From positions 3,040,001 through 3,104,000 of the forward strand of contig OY762926.1 in NCBI GenBank assembly GCA_963666735.1: a stretch of DNA of 64,000 bases, written 5' to 3'. Of the stretch, positions 23,861 through 26,399 are shown piece after piece. Both the position numbers and the translations under genes were made by a program. Source of the DNA: Gemmatimonadota bacterium. GTDB taxonomy: Bacteria; Gemmatimonadota; Gemmatimonadetes; Palauibacterales; Palauibacteraceae. Positions within the stretch are counted from its first letter, which is position 1; the number at the start of each line of letters is the position of its first letter. The notes below the pieces were generated by a model, which had not been told where the DNA came from, did no database searches, and worked only from the letters and a program-made list of their open reading frames with translations.

Positions 23861-24066
23861 CGGCCGGTACACGCCCGTCGATAAACTAATGTCGACGACC
23901 TCAAGCCGCCCCCGCACCGAAGTTCTGGTTTCAGCTCCGCGGGGTGGCCACCCCGGCGTGGCCATGCTTTTTCCATTGCGGCTTGACGCCGGAGAGAGGG
24001 GGAGGGTAATGTAACTTACAATGAAGCGCGTGTTCCACAGATGCGTCACAATTGCAGGAGAACGCG

Positions 24067-24651
24067 ATGAAGCTTCGATCAAGTATCCGCCGCTGGATTG
24101 GGTGGGCCGTACTCGTACTTGCGGTCAGCTGGACTGGATACCCATTGCAAGCTTACGAAGCCGGGTTCCTCAACCGCCCCTCTCACGCGTTTACGCCGCA
24201 ATTCATGGAAGCGTCTGAGTGGGTATCCGAAACCACGAACATCGAACTCAATTGGAAATGGCCGACCGACGGAGTTTTTCTGGTAGTGGATTGGGAATGC
24301 CCGTGGTCGGAGGCGGCTATCGAAGCAGCGCTTGCGCTCCACGAGACATCGCCGAAACGAGAAGTGCTTCTGCTCGATACAGATCCTCGCAACGGACCTC
24401 GTTGGCGTCGGAAGTTCGGCGCCGAGATGTCGAAGATGCTCCGAATCGTGACCCCCCGTGCCGGCTGGTGGTCCATTGGCACGCCTCGTGGTGTCACCCC
24501 CGTGTGGTTTGTGATTGAAGGCGGTGAGTTCACCGGCGTCGGTGTCGGCGCTGACGGTTTGCGGACGCTGAGTTCGTTTGACTTCGATCCGATGGCGCCG
24601 ATAGTAACGTCAATTGCCCCCGTTGAAGAACTGACCTTGAACGAAAGGTGA
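24067..24651 (+). CDS. Exported thioredoxin-like protein (CPWS)
   Basis: Signal or transmembrane N-terminus; FLVVDWECPWS and later GVTP cis-Pro-like motif. Confidence 0.55.
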   Translation: MKLRSSIRRWIGWAVLVLAVSWTGYPLQAYEAGFLNRPSHAFTPQFMEASEWVSETTNIELNWKWPTDGVFLVVDWECPWSEAAIEAALALHETSPKREVLLLDTDPRNGPRWRRKFGAEMSKMLRIVTPRAGWWSIGTPRGVTPVWFVIEGGEFTGVGVGADGLRTLSSFDFDPMAPIVTSIAPVEELTLNER

Positions 24652-24657
24652 CCTCGC

Positions 24658-24907
24658 ATGCTGCCACGACACGTTGGATCCTTCGCGCTTGTGTTGATCG
24701 CCGCGTTGCTGGTGGCGCCGACCGTCTCACCGATTCCGTCACTGGAGGCGATGAGTGCGGCGTGCCAAGCGGGCCCCCAAGACGAAGTGCTGCACCTGCG
24801 GCGAGCAGGACGGGGAGCCATTCTGTAAGGGTGGAGCATACATAGGAGCGGTATCGTGCGATGGCTCCTCCTGCCCGGATAATCCGGCCTGTCTGTGGGT
24901 ACAGTAG
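24658..24907 (+). pseudogene. Secreted 8-Cys peptide, copy A, with one extra base in the C5 run at 24774-24778
   Basis: MLPRHVGSFALVLIAALLVAP..SACQAGP then, after removing one C, KTKCCTCGEQDGEPFCKGGAYIGAVSCDGSSCPDNPACLWVQ*; aligns with 26115-26399. Confidence 0.8.
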
Positions 24908-24972
24908 GGACAGCGAGTGTTCTCGTCCTTCAGTCGCCTATCGTCGCGCGCCCACCCAAGCGTAGCCGCTGC

Positions 24973-26067
24973 ATGAGGACTCCGCGCTTCCGTGTTTTGC
25001 AGCAGTTGCTGATGTGTTCTTCGGTTCTTGGCTCCGGAGAGAGCAACCACGCGTGGCTATTGCCCGGACTAAGCGACGTGAGGGCCGAGGCGGCGGGGGC
25101 GGATTCCTCGTGGGTGGCGGTATCGCTTCGAGAATACGGTAGTTTGTCTGGAGAGATATCCTTCGGCGCCCCTATCGACGCGGCGGTTCTCGCGGATGGC
25201 AGTCTCGTTGTAGCGGATCTGCACGCCTGCACCCTTACAGTGATCGCGCGACCCGAGGGTCGCTTGCGCCACAAACTGGGTCGTTGTGGCGATGGCCCCG
25301 GCGAATTTCGGATGATCCGAATCATCGACACGTTCGGCGACTCGATCTTCGTTTACGATCAGGGACACGGTGCCGTCGTCGTGTTGGACGATACGGGCCA
25401 CGAGGCGAGGCGAGTGCCGCTGGGAGTCGTAGGCGGGCGGCGTGTGACCCTTTCGCATCTGGCCGTACTGGACGACTCGACGCTGGTGGTCGCTACCGAG
25501 GCGGCCGACCACGCCAGCGTGGCGCTGGTCGACAGTCGAACGGGAGTGTTCCGCAGGTCCTTGTTGGACGCTCCACCTATTGCCATGCGCTCGGACGGCT
25601 GGATCAGGCATATGGCGGCTTGCGTCGAGCCCGGGAGCCGGTCGCCTACCATCGTCGCGACAAGTGAATGGGCTCTTGAAGGTGTTGGATTCGTATCCGA
25701 TACCGGCGAAGAACGATTTCATTTCCTGACATCGCTGGATCTGCCTCCCACGCTCACATCGGGCGGGACGTGGGTGCCGGGGCCAGCCAGGGTCGACGTG
25801 GCTTGCGGTCGCTCGCTAGCTCTTTACCGCGTCGTGACGGTGGATCCGGACGACTTTACGGGAGACATCGCGGACATCCGTGCATCGTCCGTGATTCTTG
25901 AAGCACGCGCGTACAGTGGAGCCCTGCTGATGCGATGGTCGGTCGTGGACACGGCATCGGTACTACGCGGGCCCATGGGCGCCTTCAGGGGGGACACGGT
26001 CTTTCTTCTTGCCGAGAGGGTCCGACCGTACCCGATAGTAAGCGAGATCGTGCTCCGGCCGCGCTGA
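24973..26067 (+). CDS. Six-bladed beta-propeller (NHL/TolB-like) protein; start uncertain
   Basis: LGRCGDGPGEF, DSIFVYD, LVVAD blade motifs. Confidence 0.8.
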   Translation: MRTPRFRVLQQLLMCSSVLGSGESNHAWLLPGLSDVRAEAAGADSSWVAVSLREYGSLSGEISFGAPIDAAVLADGSLVVADLHACTLTVIARPEGRLRHKLGRCGDGPGEFRMIRIIDTFGDSIFVYDQGHGAVVVLDDTGHEARRVPLGVVGGRRVTLSHLAVLDDSTLVVATEAADHASVALVDSRTGVFRRSLLDAPPIAMRSDGWIRHMAACVEPGSRSPTIVATSEWALEGVGFVSDTGEERFHFLTSLDLPPTLTSGGTWVPGPARVDVACGRSLALYRVVTVDPDDFTGDIADIRASSVILEARAYSGALLMRWSVVDTASVLRGPMGAFRGDTVFLLAERVRPYPIVSEIVLRPR

Positions 26068-26114
26068 GTCGCGACGGGGATGTGTACGTGTTTTGTCCGA
26101 CAAGGTGGTGCACC

Positions 26115-26399
26115 ATGAGGAACAAGCGACGCACCCGTCGCGAGGGTCGGCGTTTCTTCGTCCTCGCCTTCGCGATCGCTGCAGGACTGATGGCGATAGC
26201 GATGCCGGCGATCCCCTCGCCCGCGCTCGGCTCGGGGGCGTCCGCGTGCAGTAGTTCGCCGGCAACCAGATGCTGCGCATGCGGCGATACCGACGGCGAA
26301 TTCTACTGCCACGGGGGTGCGTACATGGGATCTCCGTATTGCGGCGAGGGCACCGAGTTTTGCGAAAGGAGACTCTGTAGATCGCCGCAGCTACAATAG
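26115..26399 (+). CDS. Secreted 8-Cys peptide, copy B
   Basis: Basic n-region, hydrophobic h-region, then SACSSSPATRCCACGDTDGEFYCHGGAYMGSPYCGEGTEFCERRLC. Confidence 0.8.
   Translation: MRNKRRTRREGRRFFVLAFAIAAGLMAIAMPAIPSPALGSGASACSSSPATRCCACGDTDGEFYCHGGAYMGSPYCGEGTEFCERRLCRSPQLQ

Follow-up and report, generated by a model that had tools for sequence, protein, structure and literature searches.

A recurrent cassette of probably exported eight-cysteine mini-proteins, a beta-propeller and a thioredoxin-fold partner in Gemmatimonadota, and its decaying copy in a Palauibacteraceae genome

We analysed a 64,000-nucleotide stretch of DNA (the window; contig OY762926.1, positions 3,040,001 to 3,104,000) from a Gemmatimonadota bacterium whose genome is a single contig of 3.98 Mb with 68.5% GC. 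The subject is a four-gene islet at 24067-26399 of the window, in which genes of one orientation encode, in order, an exported protein with a CPWS motif, a cysteine (Cys)-rich peptide A, a beta-propeller and a second Cys-rich peptide, B (Table 1). GC content averages 68.5 +/- 2.6% over the genome and 61.5% in the islet, a level as low as this occurring in 1.2% of stretches of the same length. The initial annotation, made from the letters alone, had described a co-oriented block of lowered GC next to an IS110 relic, and both the composition and the Pfam match upstream bear this description out; the CPWS and GRCGDGPGEF motifs that it named are likewise present.

Table 1. Features of the islet and its upstream flank, in positions of the window.
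Feature	Positions	Strand	Basis or remark
IS110 transposase fragment	23557..23976	-	PF01548, E 2.8e-9; upstream of the islet
ResA/TlpA-like thioredoxin-fold protein, CPWS (CxxS), TP cis-Pro-like motif, membrane-anchored	24067..24651	+	hhalign to CxxC homologues
CPWS active-site motif	24298..24309	+	sequence; Cys invariant in 5/5 aligned rows
Peptide A gene, frameshifted	24658..24907	+	leader and Cys core in different frames
NHL/DUF5128-like six-bladed beta-propeller, 364 residues, four invariant Cys	24973..26067	+	AlphaFold, fold search
Peptide B, intact, 94 residues, leader and ~55-residue mature domain with 8 Cys	26115..26399	+	open reading frame

Both peptides have hydrophobic leaders, with 12-residue hydropathies of 3.2 (A) and 2.6 (B), in line with the signal sequences initially claimed for them. 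The motif CxGGAY following CCxC occurs at only two places in the whole genome, which are peptides A and B. The shared Cys motif of the initial annotation is also there, with one spacing to be corrected: the first Cys is separated from the Cys pair by seven residues (C-x7-CC), not six as in SAC-x6-CC. When a representative protein library was searched, 18 of the 20 matches were small proteins with the same Cys frame; the other two (P0007 and P0018), both long repeat proteins, were dropped. In a 36-row alignment that joins library proteins with peptides taken from loci, eight Cys and one Gly are invariant in every row at a mean identity of 22%, following the pattern C-x6-14-CC-x-C-x4-25-C-(mostly x10)-C-x4-13-C-x4-8-C. 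The mature domains are net acidic in 32 of these rows, 17 of the 36 lack any Trp, no Trp is invariant, and the C-termini share no Gly or other handle.

No characterised family accounts for these peptides. There were no meaningful Pfam matches among the 36 sequences, no NCBIfam match for the 25 rows searched, and no match in a PDB profile search (best E 0.43); the ESM Atlas gave weak leads only (0.81, Acidobacteriota clusters) and no named cluster, and peptide-pattern scans found no matches. AlphaFold models peptide B as beta-rich, with a mean predicted local distance difference test score (pLDDT) of 77 and 86-89 in the Cys core, although only two of the five models exceed 70 overall. Foldseek/VIA returned no fold match for this model, a weak absence given its small size and the inclusion of the leader. 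The peptides are thus apparently an undescribed family of Cys-rich mini-proteins.

Within the genus, comparison of codons yields ratios of nonsynonymous to synonymous substitution (dN/dS) of 0.05 for peptide A, 0.16-0.21 for peptide B, 0.27-0.40 for the thioredoxin-fold gene and 0.22-0.30 for the propeller. Since these ratios span 0.05-0.40, the cassette genes are real and under purifying selection. The 3' piece of the window's own peptide A gives 0.07-0.13 against congeners, and intact peptide A orthologues of 82 residues with eight Cys are encoded in congeners G022 and G033. Upstream (A) and downstream (B) peptides cluster by position across two host families (support 94/88, nine labelled rows), which indicates that the A/B pair is older than its transfer between them.

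The CPWS protein by itself matched nothing in the domain and family libraries searched, and its placement comes through CxxC homologues. Its window-type profile aligns with that of six such homologues (hhalign 95.4%, E 1.7e-8), and the homologue profile in turn matches ResA (E 6e-7), the individual CxxC partners matching ResA, AhpC-TSA and DsbE at or under the cut-off. By this route the protein has the ResA/TlpA/DsbE fold, with an N-terminal membrane anchor and a cis-Pro (TP) motif, but lacks the CxxC dithiol that defines the class: the site is CxxS in five of five window-type rows and CxxC in six of six homologue rows. A helical stalk is also predicted, and AGGAG lies 7 nucleotides upstream of the ATG. 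CxxS is a known active-site variant (PMC2757866). The arrangement resembles that of Proteus mirabilis ScsC, a thioredoxin-fold domain on an N-terminal coiled-coil stalk that is required for isomerase activity (PMC5524982). ScsC is, however, a soluble DsbA-type trimer with CxxC, whereas the cassette protein is ResA-type, membrane-anchored and CxxS.

The propeller is modelled confidently (AlphaFold pLDDT 89) as a six-bladed NHL-type fold. Its top fold neighbours are NHL domains (1q7f, Z 25.4, root-mean-square deviation (rmsd) 3.1 over 265 aligned residues; Foldseek E 1.6e-10), and fold matches of the NHLRC2/SOQ1 type follow at Z about 19 (6gc1, 7djk). PF17170 (DUF5128) matches at E 0.0022, under its cut-off. 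A lipobox is present in most propeller rows, and C86, C105, C217 and C278 are invariant in all 24, where they likely form two disulfides. Beyond these Cys and NHL-type motifs, no invariant catalytic or metal-ligand set emerged across the 24 rows, nor, at the level of the alignment, any invariant Tyr or His.

Linkage of the three components was assessed in a scan that used the propeller alone and returned 74 loci, 38 with a full-length member and 36 with partial matches. A family peptide accompanies 21 of the 38 full-length propellers versus one of the 36 partial matches, and a thioredoxin-fold gene 21 of 38 versus none of 36; the sole partial-match locus with a peptide holds a member of the family that is truncated where the contig stops. 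With the seven loci that had built the profiles excluded, a peptide is present at 14 of 31 full-length loci, nine after near-duplicate pairs are collapsed. The linked loci include non-sponge Gemmatimonadales and other metagenome contigs, other gene orders and CxxC thioredoxins, and the trio of peptide, propeller and thioredoxin is retained while gene order varies. All taxon-labelled full-length propeller matches belong to Gemmatimonadota. Within the host genome itself, 13 of 15 small exported Cys-rich open reading frames (ORFs) adjoin one of 97 propellers, where 3.3% would be expected (P about 6e-18); the filter used was free of any motif and misses some, such as the ORF at 353649 (G000:C1). 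Because of this adjacency, and although the other propeller-adjacent peptides are unrelated to it in sequence, the eight-Cys family reads as one branch of a wider peptide/propeller module.

The cassette itself is rare. A search with peptide B found it in three of 35 other genomes of the genus, a fourth match (E 0.008) lying within a long frame. Its copies in G022 and G033 are intact throughout, and in G016 peptide B has a gap and a 5' frameshift. A five-row peptide profile matched 10 of 401 genomes of the class, five of them from another family, and the thioredoxin profile matched two of 251 genomes of the other host family. These class, phylum and family searches scored 11-13 candidates per genome, so their misses are soft. 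The class-level cassettes keep the same gene order at unrelated chromosomal sites. Among them the cassette of G125, from the other family, is intact; G193 has a frameshifted propeller beside two intact peptides, in G112 the thioredoxin is cut short by a stop and the propeller preceded by an insertion, G366 has damage in both peptides, and G190 a propeller with only a peptide remnant. The loci L013, L014 and L037 hold intact cassettes, and the nearest taxon-labelled loci, L049 and L050 from Candidatus Palauibacter, carry the same cassette at the same site. Sponge metagenomes are among the sequencing runs that contain the islet stretch. Being rare, patchy and found at unrelated sites, the cassette has probably been transferred.

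The copy in the window is decaying. Peptide A is split over two frames by an extra base at 24779: the leader lies in 24658-24828, with a stop at 24828, and the Cys core continues in the next frame to 24907. Eight sequencing runs were compared, two of 24 listed runs having been left out as flagged possible assembly sources. Contigs of X1, X7 and X8 cover the break with letters identical to the window, so a sequencing or assembly error was rejected and the frameshift taken as a real allele; X1 is near-identical to the window and may itself be an assembly source. Base 24779 is missing from X10 and X14, which instead have a 4-nucleotide insertion behind 24861, and X17 has a 113-nucleotide deletion from 24775; for X9 and X20 no piece spanning the break is listed. 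Three different lesions therefore break peptide A in near-identical strains. No indel is listed inside the propeller gene in any of the eight runs, and X17 has one in peptide B. The propeller's lipobox Cys codon (25033-25035) encodes Ser in the window lineage and Cys in X9, X10, X14 and X17 (25034 C>G). The thioredoxin gene lacks 84 nucleotides at 24142/24143 that are present in X10, X14, X17 and congeners, a loss of 28 residues from the predicted helical stalk. This deletion may disable the protein, given that ScsC needs its stalk for isomerase activity.

Across ten cassettes of the window clade, the propeller frame is unbroken in eight and both peptides are intact in five. The end state of decay is seen in L062 (4038-8870), where the peptides are gone, the thioredoxin lacks its Cys and the propeller is interrupted. 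An orphan clade of nine loci holds a propeller about 51% identical and with a median dN/dS of 0.29 (eight of nine compared); a family peptide was found in none of five orphan-clade genomes and in three of five control genomes. As the propeller outlasts the peptides and remains under selection in the orphan clade, the loss pattern favours a released ligand and a capture protein.

The account that we tentatively prefer, at slightly less than an even chance, is that the cassette makes released four-disulfide mini-proteins, with a dedicated ResA-like protein to fold them and a cognate propeller lipoprotein that captures them and can be retained in their absence. It builds on what is directly observed: gene order, family conservation, linkage, purifying selection, the propeller fold and that of the thioredoxin's CxxC homologues, and the lesions. 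Sec export and signal cleavage would yield mostly acidic domains of 45-55 residues, whose eight Cys would pair into four disulfides. The thioredoxin-fold protein would form or shuffle these bonds, as oxidase or isomerase in CxxC lineages; in the CxxS clade of sponge symbionts it may serve as a one-Cys isomerase or a holdase, possibly oligomeric through its stalk as P. mirabilis ScsC is. The propeller would bind the folded peptide without catalysis, as cognate receptor or immunity partner, and the peptide would act between cells, so that a cell could lose the peptide while retaining its propeller. Export, the pairing into four disulfides and folding by the thioredoxin partner are probable, because established envelope biology and the linkage both point to them. 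The capture role of the propeller is inferred.

Several observations weigh against this account. Selection on the peptides is purifying, not diversifying, and the predominance of acidic mature domains (32 of 36) is unlike membrane-active antimicrobials. Neither exporter, sensor nor regulator is conserved in the cassettes viewed, and no component for reading out a signal is linked to them. A peptide is missing from 17 of 31 independent full-length propeller loci, for which reason the propeller may serve a separate function; nine of the 17 belong to the orphan clade and an insertion sequence (IS) or a contig end truncates at least L066 and L075/L101, while L064, L065, L069 and L090 lack a peptide without such an explanation. 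Nor is the propeller always the survivor, as the G193 frameshift, the L062 interruption and the lost lipobox of the window attest, and a tree of the propellers shows no clustering of loci with or without peptide (86 of 500 shuffles gave an equally low value). A bolder proposal, somewhat unlikely in our estimation, would extend released, captured mini-proteins into a large, undescribed cell-to-cell language or weapon of Gemmatimonadota, with Sec-exported disulfide mini-proteins, cognate propeller receptors, their own foldases, and orphan receptors that intercept the peptides of neighbours; more than a dozen unrelated peptide/propeller pairs would then coexist in one symbiont genome, the eight-Cys family being one branch whose four-disulfide fold may be new. 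A host-directed effector, suggested at the outset, is less likely than was supposed because the family also occurs in non-sponge Gemmatimonadales genomes and other metagenome contigs.

Other explanations must be set beside a released ligand and its capture protein. We consider it unlikely that the mini-protein is a permanent small subunit on a lipid-anchored propeller, an exchangeable specificity adaptor on the logic of methylamine dehydrogenase (MADH) without the cofactor. The mau cluster does have the same three-part logic, one cassette thioredoxin weakly matches MauD (E 0.0017, far under cut-off), and strong purifying selection on the peptide core together with the lack of an exporter would suit a resident subunit; yet purifying selection still acts on orphan propellers whose genomes hold no family peptide, two distinct paralogues are retained per propeller, and no conserved Trp or other cofactor residue was found in the peptides. 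Quite unlikely is a role of the peptides as periplasmic metal or thiol buffers, in the manner of metallothioneins or bufferins, with the thioredoxin keeping their Cys reduced and the propeller loading and unloading them. A CxxS site is unable to complete a normal dithiol reductase cycle, the fixed even number of eight Cys, the fixed x1 and about x10 spacings and the confident beta-rich model suit disulfides, and neither MNIO (DUF692) nor another modifying enzyme was seen in the cassettes viewed. The CCxC motif, the acidic loops and the closeness of the thioredoxin to the reductive ResA/DsbE class speak for a buffer, and bufferins are themselves described as copper-binding Sec-exported Cys peptides (PMC11626156).

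A propeller that modifies the peptide, as a PAL- or lactonase-like enzyme in a pathway of the RiPP type (peptides made on ribosomes and modified after translation), we regard as very improbable. Its fold neighbours do include PAL (3fw0, Z 21.7, rmsd 3.5), several lactonases and lyases, but non-enzymatic NHL domains rank above them (Z 25.4-22.4), and, as described above, the propeller rows lack an invariant catalytic or metal-ligand set and the peptide C-termini a common handle. That the genes are independent cargo gathering at the same insertion sites is scarcely credible. Most of the host's 97 propellers have no peptide neighbour under the filter used, and many cassettes have decayed; subfamily-specific linkage (21 of 38 versus 1 of 36) is nonetheless kept through changes of gene order and at unrelated chromosomal sites, and these counts largely refute such a gathering.

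Around the islet lie a mobA-like gene on one side and a convergent kynureninase/tryptophan dioxygenase pair on the other, the kynureninase-like gene overlapping the 3' end of peptide B by 9 nucleotides. At the orthologous site of congeners G022, G033 and G016 (L013, L014, L015) nothing corresponds to the IS110 relic; we therefore reject mobilisation of the islet by IS110 and place the relic, as a later insertion, outside the module. Compared with congeners, 23157-24043 has other sequence in place of the mobA-like 3' end and the cassette's upstream region, which may have cost this copy its native promoter region. Promoter and terminator counts are at chance level, and seven loci compared share no conserved upstream motif. 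Contigs of RNA run X20 cover parts of three islet genes, which is no demonstration of transcription since the library is polyA and the contigs assembled. PADLOC and PHROGs each matched none of the four islet proteins. Upstream of the mobA-like gene, at 22138-22576 (+), is a gene that we take, from its CVENSCRSQMAE motif, to encode an ArsC/low-molecular-weight phosphatase-like protein.

Some further observations concern other loci. In the host genome (G000:C1), three paralogous exported 4-Cys proteins at 353649, 515726 and 2744219 (+), each directly before a propeller gene, share a YY..GG.C-like tail and form a second peptide family. Ten more unrelated exported Cys-rich ORFs lie beside propellers at 1931326, 2262016, 2414673, 2416910, 2420508, 2430724, 2657510, 2889406, 2901212 and 2901938, and 3873460-3877049 holds a lipoprotein, a DsbA-like CxxC protein, an ATPase-like gene and an exported 6-Cys peptide. 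Elsewhere, transposase-like insertions lie within or replace cassette parts in L035 (8799-10205) and L066 (4088-4693), presumably IS1380-like and IS630-like, respectively. A 459-residue ORF with a Cys cluster precedes the propeller in one non-sponge cassette (L087:1348-2724). Orphan propellers in L054-L059 and L061 (about 1-7000) occupy a conserved position behind a tandem of generic propellers and an ABC transporter, and in L061 the propeller is followed by what we take to be a subtilisin-like gene, an arrangement recalling qhpE/qhpF. Weak matches to peptide B in L016 and L017 proved to be unrelated loci.

Secreted mini-proteins rich in disulfides are known chiefly from animals, plants and fungi. 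Here nearly all small exported Cys-rich proteins of one bacterial genome adjoin DUF5128-like propellers. If the proposed roles are true, a very large unannotated lipoprotein family would gain a candidate ligand-partner role, and the cassettes would offer stable natural scaffolds of four disulfides together with a dedicated enzyme to fold them. We found no description of the module in the literature searched, including the topics of NVEALA, DUF5128 and Palauibacter propellers, subscription literature lying mostly outside that search; a term search for 'propeller' in the available main text of PMC10469786 and PMC11651109 gave no hit.

Among known systems, the nearest neighbourhood is presumably that of the NVEALA small proteins (PF14055), which lie beside DUF5128 six-bladed propellers in Bacteroidota. 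Like these, the cassette pairs a small Cys peptide that bears a leader with a DUF5128-like propeller lipoprotein; unlike them, its peptides have a different Cys frame and its propeller matches DUF5128 only under the cut-off. In keeping with the initial remark that the NVEALA motif is lacking, none of the 36 peptides matches PF14055 at E<=1, and the best match in the genome (E 0.12, under the cut-off) lies elsewhere. In the mau cluster, MauB is a propeller and MauA a small chain with tryptophan tryptophylquinone (TTQ), accompanied by MauD and MauE. MauD is a thioredoxin-fold protein required for the six disulfides of MADH (10.64898/2026.03.05.709764), and the combination of a propeller, an exported disulfide-rich small protein and a dedicated thioredoxin-fold protein is common to both systems. 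The cassette peptides differ from MADH in having eight rather than 12 Cys and no conserved Trp, and in their six-bladed NHL-type lipoprotein partner; they show neither the two conserved Trp nor a Pfam or NCBIfam match that MADH/AADH small subunits call for, and MauE and MauG were not seen in the cassettes viewed.

The clusters of bacteroidetocins (class IIf bacteriocins) resemble the cassette in pairing a disulfide peptide with a dedicated oxidoreductase, which they encode in a four-gene accessory region (PMC6671954). Bacteroidetocins have a double-glycine leader, an ABC peptidase-transporter, four Cys and no immunity protein, whereas the cassette has a Sec-type leader, eight Cys and a propeller; its leaders are not of the double-glycine type, and no ABC peptidase-transporter was seen in the peptide-bearing cassettes viewed. 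NHLRC2, with a thioredoxin-like domain fused to an NHL propeller whose cleft is proposed for partner binding (PMC6107167), shares the same two folds. In NHLRC2 and SOQ1, however, these are fused, carry a CCINC motif and come without an encoded peptide partner; the likeness is one of fold. Bufferins are likewise small Sec-exported Cys peptides from short operons, but require MNIO (DUF692) as enzyme and DUF2063 as partner (PMC11626156); all four islet genes are otherwise assigned, and inspection of the other loci by eye revealed neither. Judged by their sequences, the cassettes thus fall outside the NVEALA proteins, TTQ subunits, class II bacteriocins and bufferins as these are defined. The initial proposal of an undescribed peptide family with a propeller and a thioredoxin-fold partner is supported, since the Cys spacing is kept among homologues, propeller linkage recurs and no characterised family matches, while the decay of the window copy had been overlooked. 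The module is real, conserved and apparently undescribed, and, the peptide apart, it appears to be assembled from known folds.

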